A program made the position numbers and the translations under genes. This document shows, in pieces, positions 7,270 to 50,787 of a stretch of DNA of 64,000 nucleotides (its first letter is position 1; every line of letters begins with the position of its first letter). Origin of the DNA: Escherichia phage FEC14; the sequence record MG383452. One strand, given 5' to 3'. The notes beneath the pieces are model-generated. The model did no database searches and was not told where the DNA came from. It saw only the letters and a program-made list of their open reading frames with translations.

Positions 7270-8037
7270 ATGTCAGAACGCGCATATCGTTTCAGTCTGA
7301 CCGCCCCAGAAATTGAGCGTTTGCTCTTGTCTATAAATGATTCCATACAAAAGCTGGACATCATTTATGACTACACGGCGGGTGGGACTGAAGGTCAAGT
7401 CGCAGCTGCGTCAGCTGTCAAAAACATGTGGCTAAAACTTAATGAGATGGTCACAGGTGAAGGTCTTAAAGACGCAATCAATGCAGCTAACGACAGCAAC
7501 GTATTCACCGATTATTATAAGTCTATTTTAGATCGCGAAACTTGGAAATTTATTGGTTCTCCGGCAGATTTATTAGCAAGGGACGATATAGACACTTCCA
7601 ATTTTGAAGGCGGTGAAGTAATCCTCCTACAAAAGAACGCTTCGGGCAACCCAGAATTCCAATACTGGAAAAGAACTCCTGTGGCAGGAGGTGATCCAAT
7701 ATTTGGTTGGGAATCTGTTTATGAAGGAAACTCCAACGACTCTTCTATTGATATTCCGGTTGTTGGGACCAGCATACTGAAGACAATCCCAAAAGCATTG
7801 TTTCATATGGTCGAATTCAGAGTACACGCTCGAGAGTCTACCCTCGGTCATTGGCAGGACACTGATGGCAAAATCGGTTATCGTGGTGAAGATCTGATTT
7901 ATAGCCTGTATAATCATGTTCAAACCAAACCGATCGCAAATATATCTTTCAGCCAAGATGTGGACAATATGATTATCACGATAACGACACTTGAACCAAA
8001 TATCAAGTGCCATTTATCGTTTATTGCGGGTTATTAA
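7270..8037 (+). CDS. hypothetical protein (255 aa), one of the few plus-strand genes
   Basis: Long plus-strand ORF in the gap between two minus-strand genes, GAGGAA RBS before ATG; stop overlaps the DinG stop convergently. Confidence 0.5.
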   Translation: MSERAYRFSLTAPEIERLLLSINDSIQKLDIIYDYTAGGTEGQVAAASAVKNMWLKLNEMVTGEGLKDAINAANDSNVFTDYYKSILDRETWKFIGSPADLLARDDIDTSNFEGGEVILLQKNASGNPEFQYWKRTPVAGGDPIFGWESVYEGNSNDSSIDIPVVGTSILKTIPKALFHMVEFRVHARESTLGHWQDTDGKIGYRGEDLIYSLYNHVQTKPIANISFSQDVDNMIITITTLEPNIKCHLSFIAGY

Positions 8038-28607: not shown

Positions 28608-28973
28608 ATGAAGCAATTTGTTGGTTTATACGCAGTAGGGGAAGACCAAGAAGCAATTCTTTCCATATCAGAACAACGTTCGTCATTAAAAGGCGTTTAT
28701 TTACAAAGCCTTTTCTGTACATCGGGGTTTATTGTGTCACCGATGTTGGTGATACCATTACTCCCAAATAACAAAGGTCTGTATGTTGGCATTATTCAAC
28801 AAGGCCAGGCGCGGGAAGTGAAAGTTGTTCCACTGCTGGCATCTAATGAAGAATTGTTTTCTCAGATTCTTGAGCCGAAAGTGCTACAACAATGTATTGG
28901 CACGATCGACTGTTTATTTGGTTCCAACAAAGAAGGCGAGGCAACCCCCGCCTATGTGAATCAAGATATTTGA
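28608..28973 (+). CDS. hypothetical protein (121 aa), plus strand
   Basis: Plus-strand ORF filling the gap before uvsW; weak RBS. Confidence 0.35.
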   Translation: MKQFVGLYAVGEDQEAILSISEQRSSLKGVYLQSLFCTSGFIVSPMLVIPLLPNNKGLYVGIIQQGQAREVKVVPLLASNEELFSQILEPKVLQQCIGTIDCLFGSNKEGEATPAYVNQDI

Positions 28974-32290: not shown

Positions 32291-32944
32291 GTGTTCCTGA
32301 CACGCGGATTCAGAAAATGGATCATGACGATGATAATGGTGCTTGCACTCACAAGTTGCCGTATCTTTGTCACGTCCGTCATTTCTGTAACCGACCTCTG
32401 GGATCCTGAAATCAGAACCATACCTGTTAACATCTCAGCCGACATTGATAAATGCAATAAAAATATTCTGAATCAAGTAGTATCTGATTTTCAGAACTTT
32501 CAGACTCTTCAAGCTGTTGGTTGTTTTGATGATAACAACCAGTCACTGAGACCATACTGGAAAACCACGATTCCCCTATTGAGGAAAGGTGACGAAGGAA
32601 AGATCCCATATCTATCCGCAAGTATTTATTACTCTCAGAATAATAGCATCATAGCGACTTTCAACCCTTCTTTCTTTGACAAACTCAGAAGGAATACTCA
32701 AGCAAGGGACGTAGAAATCACCAGAGACGTTGCAATATCATTTCAGATAGTTAATAACACCAAATCTCCGATCCGAATTGCCACTCAGGGTGTTTTCGTT
32801 AATGGATCTGCTGTAGGTAATGAAATGAACATCTATGAAATAAGACCAGGCGGTAAAGTATGGATTCGAATGAGTGATGTTGGGGTGAACTCCCTGGTGA
32901 TGGAAGGTATCGAACCAGTGGGAGTTCTCCCCGCTAGACATTGA
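32291..32944 (+). CDS. plus-strand lipoprotein (start likely GTG giving MFLTRGFRKWIMTMIMVLALTSC signal with lipobox)
   Basis: Lipobox LTSC after a hydrophobic segment; GGAGA RBS before an in-frame GTG; track ORF 32246..32944. Confidence 0.45.
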   Translation: MFLTRGFRKWIMTMIMVLALTSCRIFVTSVISVTDLWDPEIRTIPVNISADIDKCNKNILNQVVSDFQNFQTLQAVGCFDDNNQSLRPYWKTTIPLLRKGDEGKIPYLSASIYYSQNNSIIATFNPSFFDKLRRNTQARDVEITRDVAISFQIVNNTKSPIRIATQGVFVNGSAVGNEMNIYEIRPGGKVWIRMSDVGVNSLVMEGIEPVGVLPARH

Positions 32945-45458: not shown

Positions 45459-47669
45459 TCAATTCTTAAACCACTCATCCATGGTCATCCCTGACATTTC
45501 GTTGAAAACTTGAATACCCCCGAAACCAGGCAAATGCTCAGTTTCGGATGGGGTGTCTCCAACGACTAAACCACCAAATGGGAATACCTGCTGAGATTCA
45601 GTTGAAGACATTCGGTTTCTCATGTCCTGAGAAATACTTGTAGATGTCAAATCACTGAACCATTCTTGTTTAACTGCCCAAGAATATAAGACCAACGGCA
45701 TGACACAGTCATCGTGACAACCGTCATCGGCTTCATACCGAGCGCCTTTGAACACAAATGTACTGAGTTCATCTATCGTGTCCTGGTCTTCTATCACCAA
45801 CATTTCTTTCTCAATGAGCGCTTTCAGGTTAGCACAACCGATAGATCGGACTTTTCTGTTGGTATTGATACCAGGTTCCGGTTTACGTCCACCAATCCGT
45901 TTCCCCGTCCCTTTGTTATCTGTTGATGTGAATATGATTTCTGGATATTCTATCTCTTGATAAAGAATTGTAATAACCTGACCGCCGACGTCGTTGTTTG
46001 TTTCAACAAGGACAGGGCATTCCCCGTATTCGGTGCACATATCAGCTATCGTGTATGCATACATCATAGGAGGTATCGTGTTATTCCTGTACTTGGCTGC
46101 TATAACATGCGGATATTCAGTTATATCCAGAATTGTTAAGACGGAATAATCTCCTTCCACCCCCTTCCCAGTGTCCGCAATCCCAAAGTAGAGACGTTGT
46201 GGGTCGTATTCCTTATAAATCTTGGTGAATTCATTAGGTTCCCGATACAACTTGGACGTCATTTTATCTAAGCATTTGGCCGGAATCAATGAACCCACGG
46301 AACCACGGAACTTAATGCCAAATTCTTGATCGAAACGAGCATCCCCCAGACGGGCACGTTGTTTGGTTTCCCAATCTGGATCTTTGGTATATGCCGGAAC
46401 CTTATACCATGGGACTTCAGTTAGGTGGAAGTCGTTGTATTGTGGATGGCGCGGATCTGCTTTGGTGACAATATCATAGAACAACCCTCGCTGGCCTTTC
46501 GGAGTACTTGTCAAAATACAGCGTGATGTATCGGCAGATGCAATGGCTGGGAAAGTTGATTCCCAAAATTCAAAGTCGTTTTCGATAAACGCGACTTCGT
46601 CAACGTACAAGAGCGATACAGAACGACCACGGATGGAGTCCGAAGACGTGGCATAAGCGTATATCTTAGAACCATTCTCAAACTCTATCAGGGTAGAACC
46701 AAACTTCTCACAACCCTGCTGAAGGAAGAATGGGAGGTCCTGATACGCCTTCCTGATACGGTCAAGAATTTCAATCGCTTGTTTCTCTTTGTTTGCCAGT
46801 ACCGCGATTTCTTTGTCTGAGTGGAACATCGCATACCAAAGAAGAAACGCAGCCACGACCGTGGTATTATGGCTGAGGAACCCATTCGTGTAATAACGTT
46901 GATCGCTGGACTTGACTTGCAAGTCATACATGTGGTGGTACTCACCAGTCTCCCAGATCTCAGAGATGAATTCTATTCCCTCCTGGGTCATTATGGCATC
47001 TCCGGCCTCCATGTCTTTAGCAAATACTTCGCGCCCATATTCATTGAAGAACATGTGCTCATCTGCGACATGAATTGTGCGTCCGGTTTCAGTCCTGACA
47101 ACGTATTCAGCGTATTCTTTCGTTTTATGAGCGGCAATAACCGGAACCCAGCCAGTGTCGGACTCAACAAAATATCGTTTCCCGAAACGGCTGTCTACAA
47201 ACTTATTGTGGTTGCCAATGGTATTCAGTGGCACAGCATGGTTCGGTCCTTCGAAGCGCTTGTGAAGCTCTTCTATGGTGAGATGCAACTCTTGTTGACT
47301 GATTGTATCATAGACATAAACAAGAGTATCACCACGGACGCATTTACCGGACTGACGAGCCTGGACGACCGCATTGAATCGATAGTCCTGAAAGTCGTGG
47401 AACAACTGCTTCTGATAATCATGCATATCGAAAAGGATAAAGCCCTTATCGATCGTGGTTATCTTGTAATAGTTGGCGGCGAAGTAGTGTGCATCCATAG
47501 AACATTCAACGAATTCGTCTTCTTGTTCATCTGTCAGCATTAACTCGACTCGAGGAGCACGCACAGAAGGTTTGCGCATGAACGTTTGGTCCATACGCAA
47601 TTTCACATCGTCTATTTTGAACCCCGTTTTAATTGGGGCATATTCTATATCACGCTTCTGATACGCCAT
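45459..47669 (-). CDS. 17: large terminase subunit gp17, interrupted by an in-frame mini-intein
   Basis: N-extein ends QARQSGK and C-extein begins TTVVAAFLL, together reconstituting Walker A (T4: SRQLGKTTVVAIFL); 736 aa total. Confidence 0.9.
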   Translation of the reverse strand: MAYQKRDIEYAPIKTGFKIDDVKLRMDQTFMRKPSVRAPRVELMLTDEQEDEFVECSMDAHYFAANYYKITTIDKGFILFDMHDYQKQLFHDFQDYRFNAVVQARQSGKCVRGDTLVYVYDTISQQELHLTIEELHKRFEGPNHAVPLNTIGNHNKFVDSRFGKRYFVESDTGWVPVIAAHKTKEYAEYVVRTETGRTIHVADEHMFFNEYGREVFAKDMEAGDAIMTQEGIEFISEIWETGEYHHMYDLQVKSSDQRYYTNGFLSHNTTVVAAFLLWYAMFHSDKEIAVLANKEKQAIEILDRIRKAYQDLPFFLQQGCEKFGSTLIEFENGSKIYAYATSSDSIRGRSVSLLYVDEVAFIENDFEFWESTFPAIASADTSRCILTSTPKGQRGLFYDIVTKADPRHPQYNDFHLTEVPWYKVPAYTKDPDWETKQRARLGDARFDQEFGIKFRGSVGSLIPAKCLDKMTSKLYREPNEFTKIYKEYDPQRLYFGIADTGKGVEGDYSVLTILDITEYPHVIAAKYRNNTIPPMMYAYTIADMCTEYGECPVLVETNNDVGGQVITILYQEIEYPEIIFTSTDNKGTGKRIGGRKPEPGINTNRKVRSIGCANLKALIEKEMLVIEDQDTIDELSTFVFKGARYEADDGCHDDCVMPLVLYSWAVKQEWFSDLTSTSISQDMRNRMSSTESQQVFPFGGLVVGDTPSETEHLPGFGGIQVFNEMSGMTMDEWFKN
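46866..47342 (-). mobile_element. mini-intein (about 159 aa) inserted in the Walker A P-loop of gp17
   Basis: Insert starts with Cys directly after GK, ends with His-Asn, followed by Thr; no homing-endonuclease domain (too short). Confidence 0.7.
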
Positions 47670-48336
47670 CGTCTTCTTCCTTCACATCAACTGTTTCACC
47701 ATCAATGATTTCATCTTCTGGTTGTTGTGCGGCCTTTGCTTGTGCTCTTTCTTCAGCGCGGCGGCGTGCATCTTCGATCGTCTTCAATAAATCGCGAGAA
47801 GATCGCGCCTTTTTCCCAACCGATACTGTTGTTGTTCCGTCTGGTGAAGTTGTAACATCCACTGTCGTGTCATCAACAGGTGGTTCTTTATCACCTGTTA
47901 CTGCCTTGATGGTTTTCTGGTTTTCCATCAAGTCTTTATTCAGACCTCGCATGAGTTCACCCAATTCACGGAAAACAGAAAATGCTCGCGGAGCTTCTGT
48001 GGATGCAGCCAATTTAGCGGCTTGTCCCATCATGAACATTGTGGCTTCTTGCATGGCATATGTTGTGTCGCGTATCCGTTTGTAATCCGTTGTAGCATCA
48101 GTGTCCGCAAACTCAGGTACTTTGGATTCCTTGGAAGCAATATCCTCCAATGAAGGCGGTTCAGGAATCGGCTGATACCCTTCCGGACGTTCACCAAACC
48201 ATTCACCTGTATTTTCATCGAAGTCAATACCTGGACGAGGGGCGACAGCCTCCATTGCCTCCTTCCCAACTTCGTCTCGGGCAGTCACCGCATCAAGTGT
48301 GGCGAGTAACCTTTCTGACATATTGCTCATGATCAA
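47650..48336 (-). CDS. 16: small terminase subunit gp16
   Basis: Located immediately upstream of and overlapping gp17; central region resembles T4 gp16. Confidence 0.65.
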   Translation of the reverse strand: MIMSNMSERLLATLDAVTARDEVGKEAMEAVAPRPGIDFDENTGEWFGERPEGYQPIPEPPSLEDIASKESKVPEFADTDATTDYKRIRDTTYAMQEATMFMMGQAAKLAASTEAPRAFSVFRELGELMRGLNKDLMENQKTIKAVTGDKEPPVDDTTVDVTTSPDGTTTVSVGKKARSSRDLLKTIEDARRRAEERAQAKAAQQPEDEIIDGETVDVKEEDDGVSEA

Positions 48337-49031
48337 TCCTCCGGATGATGTATGCCGTCTTTATCAACTCGGAACCATTCAGGAAGTTCCGACCATGGCA
48401 TGTTCAAATCATTAGACATTTCAATAATTATCTCTTTGATGACGTTTGGATCCCCACCGCCCGAACCATCATCAACCCAATAATCTTCTCCATAGATGTG
48501 ACCATGTAATTGAAAATTGAATGAACAATCTATGTGTGGTGATTCTGTTGCGTCTCCTTCCCAGTTGTCAGAAATCGTGTGATTTACCAACATTATCTTC
48601 ACGTTCTGATCTTGAGATAAAGTGTCGTTGTCCTTTATCTGACAGTCAACAGAAGGAGTGAACACAGAATAAATTTGTTCCAACACCTGTAGCATTTCGA
48701 CCAGTTTCTTCGTTCTGATGTTATATTCAAAATCTATAATGATCGGAATTCGTTGTTTGGACCGCGCAGTTGCAGTCGATATCTGATTATGATACGACTT
48801 GGTCACCTGTTTATTGATTTCGAACTGACCAAAGGACATTGTTGCAAATGGCAGCATATTGGCTGGCACGTTCCTGTTGAGGTCATTACGGCGGCCAATG
48901 GCCATATGCAGCGGGATTTCCATCAAGCCACGTTCGGTTTTGACTTTTAAATCCGACATGATAGCGTTGAAAACATGGATATATTTCAACAACGATTCAT
49001 GGTAGAAATATTTTTCAAATGGTCTGGCCAT
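48333..49031 (-). CDS. 15: tail sheath stabiliser / tail completion protein gp15
   Basis: N-terminal region parallels T4 gp15; position between gp14 and gp16. Confidence 0.6.
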   Translation of the reverse strand: MARPFEKYFYHESLLKYIHVFNAIMSDLKVKTERGLMEIPLHMAIGRRNDLNRNVPANMLPFATMSFGQFEINKQVTKSYHNQISTATARSKQRIPIIIDFEYNIRTKKLVEMLQVLEQIYSVFTPSVDCQIKDNDTLSQDQNVKIMLVNHTISDNWEGDATESPHIDCSFNFQLHGHIYGEDYWVDDGSGGGDPNVIKEIIIEMSNDLNMPWSELPEWFRVDKDGIHHPED

Positions 49032-49033
49032 GA

Positions 49034-49675
49034 TTATTCCCCGAAGTCTATCTTCATTTTATTGGGCGAAAGATCTTTCTCTATTTCGTCCGCAAATTGG
49101 TTATCCGTTTGCAGGCTGGCGTCTTTGTACACACCGTCTCCTTCCAGATCCTGCAATCGTTTATCGATATCGTCTATTTCAGATACACCTGTATCGAAAT
49201 CTTCGTTACCGTATTGGAACAACGTACATGGTAGGGAATATGTGTACCATTTCCCAAATTGCATGAATTCTTCATCGTTGTTCGGGTTATTCACTTTAAA
49301 TATTTTGTTAGCCATAGGCAGATATATCAAATCACCTTCTTGAGGCATTTGTTCAAGGCCTGGACCATTACCAATAACTTCTGAAAAACGACGACGAGCA
49401 ATAGTGAAGGTCACTTCATCTTGTAATTGGATACCGCCGAACTTTTCCCACATCTGTGTGTTGAAGCCTTGATAATCCTGCATATACACTTCGATGTCAA
49501 ACGCTTGGTCGAATTTGTGTTCGGCCTCGTTTAAAATTGGGTATTTTTCAACAATAGAACGTGGGATATACTTGACGTCAATCCCACGCAATTGTATCAT
49601 CTCGACCACCAAGTCATCAATTAATTTTTGAGTACCTTGATGTGCTGTATAGTTGAAATATTTTGAAGTAGCCAT
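49034..49675 (-). CDS. 14: neck protein gp14
   Basis: Position between gp13 and gp15; MAT... N-terminus; preceded by CTAAATA motif and GAGGG RBS. Confidence 0.55.
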   Translation of the reverse strand: MATSKYFNYTAHQGTQKLIDDLVVEMIQLRGIDVKYIPRSIVEKYPILNEAEHKFDQAFDIEVYMQDYQGFNTQMWEKFGGIQLQDEVTFTIARRRFSEVIGNGPGLEQMPQEGDLIYLPMANKIFKVNNPNNDEEFMQFGKWYTYSLPCTLFQYGNEDFDTGVSEIDDIDKRLQDLEGDGVYKDASLQTDNQFADEIEKDLSPNKMKIDFGE

Positions 49676-49698
49676 GACTTTACCCTCAATTTTGAAGG

Positions 49699-49705
49699 TA
49701 TTTAG
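49699..49705 (-). promoter_or_regulatory. candidate late promoter CTAAATA upstream of gp14-gp17 operon
   Basis: Motif about 25 nt upstream of gp14 ATG. Confidence 0.45.
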
Positions 49706-49736
49706 TCAATCATTAATTCTTTTGAGGAATTGATAA

Positions 49737-49949
49737 ATGAAGGTTGAAGATATTAAAGAAACTCGTGACGGAAGGCGTGTGAGAATTATCTGTGTAGATG
49801 CTAAAATCGCCGATGGTTCATATAACATTGTGGGTCTTATCAAAGGCGAAAAGGATAATGATTTTATTGAATGGTGGGACGAAAAGAACGTGGTTGATGG
49901 TTATATTCTAGCAAATTCAGATCCTTCCGGACGCGACATCAAGTTATAA
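49737..49949 (+). CDS. small plus-strand protein (70 aa) embedded in the late operon
   Basis: GAGGAA RBS 9 nt before ATG; followed by a bidirectional hairpin. Confidence 0.45.
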   Translation: MKVEDIKETRDGRRVRIICVDAKIADGSYNIVGLIKGEKDNDFIEWWDEKNVVDGYILANSDPSGRDIKL

Positions 49950-49954
49950 AAAGA

Positions 49955-49972
49955 AAGGCGGGATAACCCGCC
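49955..49972. terminator. bidirectional hairpin AGGCGGG-ATAA-CCCGCCT between the plus-strand small gene and gp13
   Basis: Inverted repeat between convergent genes. Confidence 0.45.
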
Positions 49973-49977
49973 TTCTC

Positions 49978-50787
49978 TTATCCCATCATAAAATCGATAG
50001 GGTATTGCTGACCAGTACGCAATTCTTCCTCCAGCCGCTCTATCTCGGTCTCGGCCTCACTGAACATACTATCACCATCCAGTTCGATACCACCAGGGAG
50101 ACGGATGCCTCTTGCCTTCTTAAGCACCTCTGCCCAACGGCGCTTGACCAATGCAGTCGCATACGCTTTCAACCACATATCATTCCATGCTTCAGCGTTT
50201 TCTTCCGATTCGGGGTCGATATTTTGATAACAACGAAAAGCCAGAGTTTCATCAACAATGGCAGCAAACTGCGGGTAAAGGCGTCGCTGGAACTTCTTGT
50301 ACACAAAATTACGGCGAACATTTAAGACGCTTGTGATATCCGACAGGCGTTGTTGCATGGAAACATAATCAATGAGACGAATAGAAACCAGCGCTGCTTT
50401 GGGGACAAGCATTGCTTGAGCCATTTGCCATTGAGGAGTTGCCCAGTTTCCGATTGACTCAATAGGAGGTCCAGGGATAACTTCAATCACATCGTCAATA
50501 TCATCGGGAAATTCTATATATCCCTTGTCGATATCTTCTTGTTTAACTTGGTACAGGAAGAACGCATCTTGGCTACCATCACGATGATATTCCCAAAATT
50601 TCTGCAGAGCATCATCGACTGCATCTTCGACTTGTGAACTGTCAAGGTTAATTTGGATCACAGGAGCGCCCAATTTACGCAAGACATAATTCATAAAAGA
50701 TTTTTTGTCTCGAATCTTATTGACGGCCATTGTTATTCCCCTTTTGCTGCAAATCAGATACAGTAATCCGCAGTGTGCGAACATCAT
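49978..50787 (-). CDS. 13: neck protein gp13
   Basis: Position upstream of gp14 in the T4 order 13-14-15-16-17; 269 aa. Confidence 0.55.
   Translation of the reverse strand: MMFAHCGLLYLICSKRGITMAVNKIRDKKSFMNYVLRKLGAPVIQINLDSSQVEDAVDDALQKFWEYHRDGSQDAFFLYQVKQEDIDKGYIEFPDDIDDVIEVIPGPPIESIGNWATPQWQMAQAMLVPKAALVSIRLIDYVSMQQRLSDITSVLNVRRNFVYKKFQRRLYPQFAAIVDETLAFRCYQNIDPESEENAEAWNDMWLKAYATALVKRRWAEVLKKARGIRLPGGIELDGDSMFSEAETEIERLEEELRTGQQYPIDFMMG

Follow-up and report, generated by a model that had tools for sequence, protein, structure and literature searches.

Why does a short gene face the opposite way in the middle of an operon encoding neck proteins and terminase, and what could its product do? 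This arrangement occurs in Escherichia phage FEC14 (MG383452), of which a stretch of 64,000 nucleotides, referred to below as the window, was analysed. The source phage is a Vi01-like Kuttervirus (Ackermannviridae). Between positions 49000 and 50800, the window is 100% identical to Escherichia phage vB_EcoM_JN03 and shares at least 99.5% identity with many Kuttervirus genomes from Salmonella (BSP101, SenALZ1/selz, GG32, SFP10). Apart from the 70-aa open reading frame (ORF) under study, the neighbouring genes are carried by the minus strand (Table 1), which nearby also encodes two small structural/coiled-coil proteins and a 1612-aa VriC-like protein. Over about 50 kb of genome, early-type and late-type genes alike are found on one strand and three genes on the other. 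Because early-type and late-type genes share a strand, orientation is not a simple early/late marker; what the opposite orientation does is to uncouple the 70-aa gene from the transcription of its neighbours.

Table 1. Features of the locus and other plus-strand genes of the window (1-based positions in the 64,000-nt window)
Feature	Position	Strand	Remarks
Large terminase	45459-47669	-	736 aa, intein-like insert
Small terminase	47650-48336	-	
gp15 sheath stabiliser	48333-49031	-	
gp14-like neck/head-closure protein	49034-49675	-	PF11649, E 1e-26; divergent neighbour of the 70-aa ORF
Candidate sigma-70-type promoter TTTTCA-16-TATACT (second)	49545-49572	+	inside gp14 CDS; 9/12 matches; -164 from ORF ATG
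Candidate sigma-70-type promoter TTGACG-17-TATCAT	49572-49600	+	inside gp14 CDS; 10/12 matches; -136 from ORF ATG
27-nt block TACCCTCAATTTTGAAGGTATTTAGTC	49681-49707		gp14 putative late promoter, 5' leader and Shine-Dalgarno (minus strand)
CTAAATA, putative gp55-type late promoter -10 of the gp14-gp15-terminase unit	49699-49705	-	23 nt upstream of gp14 ATG
Shine-Dalgarno GAGGAA	49724-49729	+	7 nt before ORF ATG
Protein-coding gene, 70 aa	49737-49949	+	stop codon included; ATG start; phrog_4466
GC-rich hairpin between the convergent ORF and gp13	49954-49975	both	abuts gp13 stop; 3' of ORF stop
gp13-like neck protein	49978-50730	-	phrog_211; convergent neighbour of the 70-aa ORF; start taken from annotation of relatives
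Other plus-strand gene	7270-8037	+	phrog_3833; family function uncharacterised
Other plus-strand gene	28608-28973	+	phrog_4255; family function uncharacterised
Other plus-strand gene	32324-32944	+	DUF7424/phrog_3832; family function uncharacterised; with the two above, the only others seen in the window

Two observations on the surroundings are recorded here. The insert of the large terminase shows the signature CVRGDTL ... SHN/T and scores 27.3 bits with Pfam Intein_splicing, under the cut-off of 35.8; the terminase of Erwinia phage Bue1 has only about 580 aa, and the Vi01-like large terminase is named 'terminase large subunit precursor' in a published table. Record OR844942.1 ('Enterococcus phage Efm 3-10', 111 kb) is 98.6-100% identical to the Kuttervirus proteins of this region and is probably mislabelled or contaminated.

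The original prediction of a 70-aa plus-strand ORF with a good ribosome-binding site, lying between gp13 and the promoter of gp14, was borne out. An in-frame TAA directly precedes the ATG, which leaves a single possible start, and the ribosome-binding-site sequence TTGAGGAAT is identical in eight genomes of four genera. The length of the ORF is by itself no evidence, since 212 ORFs of at least 65 aa are present in the window, and the case rests on conservation. Conservation in relatives, the check proposed with the prediction, was found: tblastn with the ORF retrieved 288 phage records, at identities from 100% down to 38%. The arrangement with gp14 leftward, the ORF rightward and gp13 leftward is common to at least five genera of enterobacterial Ackermannviridae, the same position and orientation being observed in Kuttervirus, Taipeivirus, Agtrevirus, Limestonevirus, the unclassified Aglimvirinae phage CRW-SP2 and Erwinia phage Bue1. 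Counted by host, records with the ORF match those with gp14 (Salmonella 164/164, Escherichia 27/27, Dickeya 20/20, Klebsiella 44/45), which makes the ORF a core gene of enterobacterial Ackermannviridae.

The pattern of substitution is that of a protein under purifying selection. Between genera, codons 1-47 have a pN of 0.15 for a pS of 0.77, synonymous sites of the ORF being saturated, and 27 residues are invariant across 31 cluster representatives. Constraint is much weaker over the C-terminal 23 codons (pN 0.48, pS 0.69). Variable columns at codon positions 1, 2 and 3 number 42, 39 and 62 of 63, respectively. Positions 49737-49949 thus encode a genuine, strongly conserved small gene. It is annotated in hundreds of records, in nearly all of them as 'hypothetical protein'. 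In the CBA120 RefSeq record (NC_016570), the numbering passes from orf203 to orf205 without an orf204, and the ORF has no CDS; the sequence at that spot (1201-1413, local numbering of the locus extract) encodes a protein 98.6% identical. The gene had been described as an unusual insertion, which overstates the case for a core hypothetical protein already annotated and classified as phrog_4466.

The history of the site could be approached through the signals flanking the ORF. The window contains 12 copies of the motif CTAAATA, of which 11 are on the minus strand (e.g. 30505, 39448, 45449, 49699, 56215, 61437 and 63672). Nine of these 11 copies lie 21-80 nt upstream of minus-strand gene starts, mostly of structural genes, and the motif also precedes gp14 in LIMEstone1, Bue1 and the Vibrio phages K444 and VAP7. 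From its strand bias and position, we infer that CTAAATA serves as the late -10 element of Ackermannviridae; it is a candidate for the late consensus that, according to the CBA120 paper (PMC3184105), had yet to be identified. The predicted promoter of gp14 is supported on the same grounds. The block TACCCTCAATTTTGAAGGTATTTAGTC, which encompasses it, is invariant in eight genomes of four genera.

In K444 and VAP7, two Vibrio Ackermannviridae, gp13 directly adjoins gp14 with no ORF between them. The 80-nt spacer consists of a terminator hairpin, complete with T-run, and then the CCTAAATA promoter. Since both signals are found there without the ORF, they predate the small gene, and the description of the gene as inserted is supported by this comparison. 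In the enterobacterial lineages, the small gene sits exactly between the older gp13 terminator and the older gp14 putative late promoter. The slot tolerates insertion: in LIMEstone1, a T5orf172/MUG113-type endonuclease gene is located between gp14 and the small ORF. That gene (1725-2500, local numbering) codes for a GIY-YIG-like protein of 235 aa with CapR zinc-finger repeats. In the 68 nt that follow, the gp14 5' end (GAAGTGGCCAT) and the late-promoter block occur a second time, which looks like a duplication made at insertion.

The hairpin on the other side of the ORF is well formed on both strands. On the plus strand it folds at -17.2 kcal/mol (z -4.8; none of 200 shuffles folds as well) and on the minus strand at a z of -3.9. 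Among nine genomes, substitutions affect both sides of five of the nine pairs, and 95% of cells remain paired; 0/500 shuffles reach this level of pairing conservation and no slid register comes close. The minus strand, on which gp13 is transcribed, has the features of an intrinsic terminator, with a 9-bp stem, six GC pairs and the tail CUUUUUAU, and the terminator scan calls the hairpin on this strand only (tail CTTTTTAT). On the plus strand, the tail CTCTTATCCC is T-poor; the stem is present for the ORF but its tail CUCUUAUCCC fails the scan. Rfam returned only a sub-threshold, terminator-like match. Of the bidirectional hairpin that had been proposed, the hairpin itself is real, as its plus-strand folding and its covariation indicate, but in this phage it is canonical only for the gp13 strand. 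In Taipeivirus, T-runs flank the hairpin on both sides, and the record of Magnus lists a terminator for each strand. From the comparison with the Vibrio spacer, the hairpin is the older terminator of gp13, not brought along with the small gene. Beyond it, the 3' end of gp13 (codons 196-240, window ~50010-50145) displays a low between-genera pS of 0.38-0.59, against about 0.75 elsewhere, which could reflect recombination, an overlapping element or plus-strand read-through.

Morons of lambdoid and other phages are autonomous promoter-gene-terminator units inserted between late genes. The locus resembles them in that a small gene with its own translation signals lies between structural genes, has a terminator at its boundary and stands apart from the transcription of the late operon around it. 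It differs in several respects. Morons are sporadic, whereas virtually all enterobacterial Ackermannviridae records with gp14 contain the ORF. Morons have their own promoter, whereas only candidate promoter sites are available for the ORF, and its terminator is the older one of a neighbour. Finally, the phage is virulent and thus the logic of lysogenic conversion does not apply to the ORF.

The product is an acidic, hydrophilic protein of 8.0 kDa (pI 4.8). It matches the phrog_4466 HMM over its full length (residues 1-70 on profile positions 1-70 of 70, E 4.4e-43) and is a member of that family without any difference, together with Vi01_165, BSP101 HYP09_gp200, SenALZ1/selz gp045, Sajous1 gp144 and LIMEstone1 ORF153; identical or near-identical proteins are encoded in many Kuttervirus records. 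No Pfam or NCBIfam model matched the ORF, with a Pfam library that did not contain PF26890, and scans of the ORF and 80 remote homologues against Pfam, NCBIfam and PHROGs returned only families of unknown function. Sequence-profile searches of the PDB with two alignments gave nothing below E 0.1.

More distant relatives were retrieved by a profile search of 1.84 billion representatives, which gave 81 proteins at E < 1e-3. The part shared among remote homologues covers residues ~8-50 and occurs in two or three copies in 19 of the 112 proteins gathered; no second copy was found in the window. A second search with the domain profile gave 976 proteins, many of them of 110-125 aa and with a precomputed assignment to Pfam PF26890, which is named Phage_HP1_YO09 in the gene tables of two metagenomic contigs. 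The precomputed Pfam column reads '-' for the Ackermannviridae clusters and PF26890.1 for these relatives. The alignment by hhalign with 40 PF26890-positive proteins has a probability of 98.6% (E 5.7e-16, 56 columns), and an HMM built from those 40 proteins alone matches the ORF at E 5.8e-12. By reciprocal tblastn, the relation was recovered at E ~4e-4. These comparisons support the 70-aa protein as a probable remote single-domain homologue of the N-terminal domain of PF26890.

PF26890 is an uncharacterised family named after an ORF of Haemophilus phage HP1. Its members have in common with the ORF product the core (K)PVxTRDGRxVRIxCxDxK...(Y)PIVGLI...G.E...W, and many of them are likewise small cytoplasmic phage proteins. 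Typical members, of 110-125 aa, carry in addition a C-terminal module (GWxNxY ... IxIEWEE) that the ORF lacks: with its 70 aa, it aligns to the N-terminal 56 columns only and does not have the two-part architecture. The genomic settings differ as well. Typical PF26890 members belong to early/accessory regions of prophage-like elements, YO09-like relatives on metagenomic contigs being found among small early or accessory genes of such elements, whereas the ORF lies between the neck genes of a virulent myovirus.

The AlphaFold2 model of the 70-aa protein is all-beta (pLDDT 89.6). Foldseek found no solved match for it in the PDB (best E 1.7) and only uncharacterised phage proteins in the BFVD viral library. 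The model of a full-length family member is also confident (pLDDT 86.9), and its Foldseek search against the PDB gave no match (best E 0.8). Overall, the family, structure and PDB searches yielded no known function, fold or motif for the 70-aa protein that would bear on the regulatory or accessory role suggested for it at the outset.

As to expression, no CTAAATA is found on the plus strand upstream of the ORF; the nearby copy is on the minus strand only and serves gp14. A late promoter for the ORF was rejected for lack of the motif on its strand. The sole sigma-70-like match in the 61-nt intergenic space, TTGAAG-16-TAATTC, is implausible as a promoter since the transcript would begin within the Shine-Dalgarno sequence. 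Two better sigma-70-like candidates are located inside the gp14 coding sequence (Table 1). They keep their offsets from the ORF start in eight genomes; the first base of the -10 element of the nearer one varies by genus (TATCAT, GATCAT, AATCAT). Codons 31-45 of gp14, which cover these candidates, show the lowest synonymous divergence in gp14 (pS 0.45), a weak dip that concerns only 15 codons. Since the sites lie within conserved coding sequence, their conservation is confounded with constraint on the gp14 protein. The putative 5' leader is unremarkable in structure (z -0.88). With no late motif on the plus strand and sigma-70-like sites inside gp14, we infer that the ORF is expressed early or independently of the late programme from a promoter within gp14. 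The literature search returned no usable transcriptome of Ackermannviridae or Kuttervirus, and no usable work on Vi01_165, PF26890 or YO09.

In Vibrio phages, homologues of the ORF occupy a different locus, adjoining baseplate gene 25, on the strand opposite to their neighbours. There, an intergenic sigma-70-like promoter is located at -38 (TTGTCT-17-AATAAT or TTGTGT-16-TATAAT) and the cassette is closed by a strong, bidirectional-looking terminator. In Vibrio phage K469 (2501-3222, local numbering), the 88-aa homologue overlaps a 158-aa partner ORF by 22 nt. No family match was obtained for this partner, and the neighbour thus gave no clue to function.

Whether the product belongs to the virion can be judged from relatives. 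By mass spectrometry of Sajous1 virions, gp142, gp143, gp145 and gp146 were present and gp144, which is this ORF, was absent (PMC10892097); small proteins are easily missed by this method. In LIMEstone1, ORF153 is not flagged as structural while ORF151 and ORF154 are, and in the Vi01 annotation the neighbours are flagged and the ORF product is not. The importance of the gene was considered in the light of the CiPGr genome-reduction study, in which structural and known essential genes were left untargeted (PMC9825161), so that hypothetical genes were presumably targeted. In the genome-reduced selz/SenALZ1 isolates (118-144 kb; PMC9825161), the region is at 100% coverage in 8/8 database genomes, and the ORF is 100% identical in two reduced isolates among the tblastn matches listed. 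This retention is consistent with importance of the ORF without proving it.

The explanation that we favour, with somewhat better than even confidence, is that of a gene forming its own unit and coding for a soluble, non-virion, all-beta protein, expressed from sigma-70 early or independently of late transcription and binding a partner in the infected cell. The gene would be a separate transcription unit in the short untranscribed gap between the gp13 terminator and the gp14 late promoter. As it faces the other way, late transcription would not drive it. Host sigma-70 RNA polymerase would instead transcribe it from a promoter within the 5' coding part of gp14, early or at least apart from the late programme, and the transcript would end at the shared hairpin, inefficiently in Kuttervirus. 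The 8-kDa acidic protein, predicted to be soluble and absent from the virion, would be made up of just one copy of the ~45-60-residue N-terminal domain of PF26890. It may bind a host or phage partner via its conserved N-terminal face, TRDGRxVRIxCxDAK...IVGL...FIEWW.

Against this explanation, the strict linkage to neck genes and the universal presence could point to a role in neck assembly. The protein would then be a neck or head-completion assembly factor, such as a chaperone or a transient partner of gp13/gp14, and would adjoin these genes because it works with them. Its constant place between gp13 and gp14 across at least five genera, its near 1:1 co-occurrence with gp14 and the region's retention in all eight reduced selz isolates are in line with such a role. 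However, the gene is on the opposite strand without the late-promoter motif and its product was not found in virions. In addition, Vibrio Ackermannviridae have gp13 and gp14 adjacent with no ORF, the homologue being next to baseplate gene 25, and relatives of the domain are found in early/accessory regions of unrelated prophage-like elements. An assembly factor is for these reasons unlikely, if still worth weighing.

A more speculative extension of the early-expression reading, to which we give little credence, takes the YO09-like domain as a fold without solved relative. The protein might be a near-essential early factor, for example in host takeover or anti-defence, whose gene would be insulated backwards in the terminator-promoter gap. 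Its transcript may act antisense at the gp14 start, coupling early expression to the timing of the neck and terminase genes.

The gene could alternatively be cargo, i.e. the remnant of a mobile cassette of homing-endonuclease or moron type that persists in a tolerant slot with little fitness value. The slot indeed takes insertions, as the LIMEstone1 endonuclease gene with its duplicated gp14 5' end illustrates, a homologue exists at another locus in Vibrio phages, and the GC3 of the ORF (0.34) is below that of its neighbours (0.41-0.43). Such a remnant is nevertheless improbable for a gene that is universal and intact in ~270 enterobacterial Ackermannviridae genomes, is under purifying selection across genera, contains no nuclease or mobility domain and was kept in genome-reduced mutants.

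Still less probable is a role in cis or at the RNA level, in which plus-strand transcription from gp14 into gp13 would tune the late units of neck and terminase genes by antisense or interference, the peptide being secondary. The candidate promoters are antisense inside the gp14 5' end, the plus-strand U-tract is poor in Kuttervirus and synonymous divergence is low both at the gp13 3' end and at gp14 codons 31-45. Against such a role, strong amino-acid constraint with saturated synonymous sites shows that the protein itself is selected. Furthermore, the putative leader is not significantly structured (z as above), Rfam gives nothing beyond a generic terminator, and the good plus-strand T-run of Taipeivirus indicates that read-through is not conserved. 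Finally, the idea of a chance ORF, for which the commonness of such lengths in the window and the missing CBA120 annotation could be invoked, has a negligible probability and is refuted by the tblastn conservation down to 38% identity and by purifying selection (pN far below pS in codons 1-47, codon-position pattern of variation), along with an invariant ribosome-binding site and the filling of an otherwise non-coding gap of 302 nt.

The explanation in terms of a separately expressed, non-virion gene concerns an already known gene, annotated in hundreds of public genomes and represented by a PHROG family, and the finding is in this respect an ordinary one. What is added is the link to PF26890, the anatomy of the terminator-promoter gap and the evidence for a core non-virion gene. 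The analysis confirms as a genuine core gene a short ORF that at least one reference annotation, that of CBA120, passes over. Ackermannviridae phages are widely used in the biocontrol of Salmonella and E. coli O157, and the practical value of the finding is modest; should the protein turn out to matter for infection, it would offer a compact target for functional and structural work.
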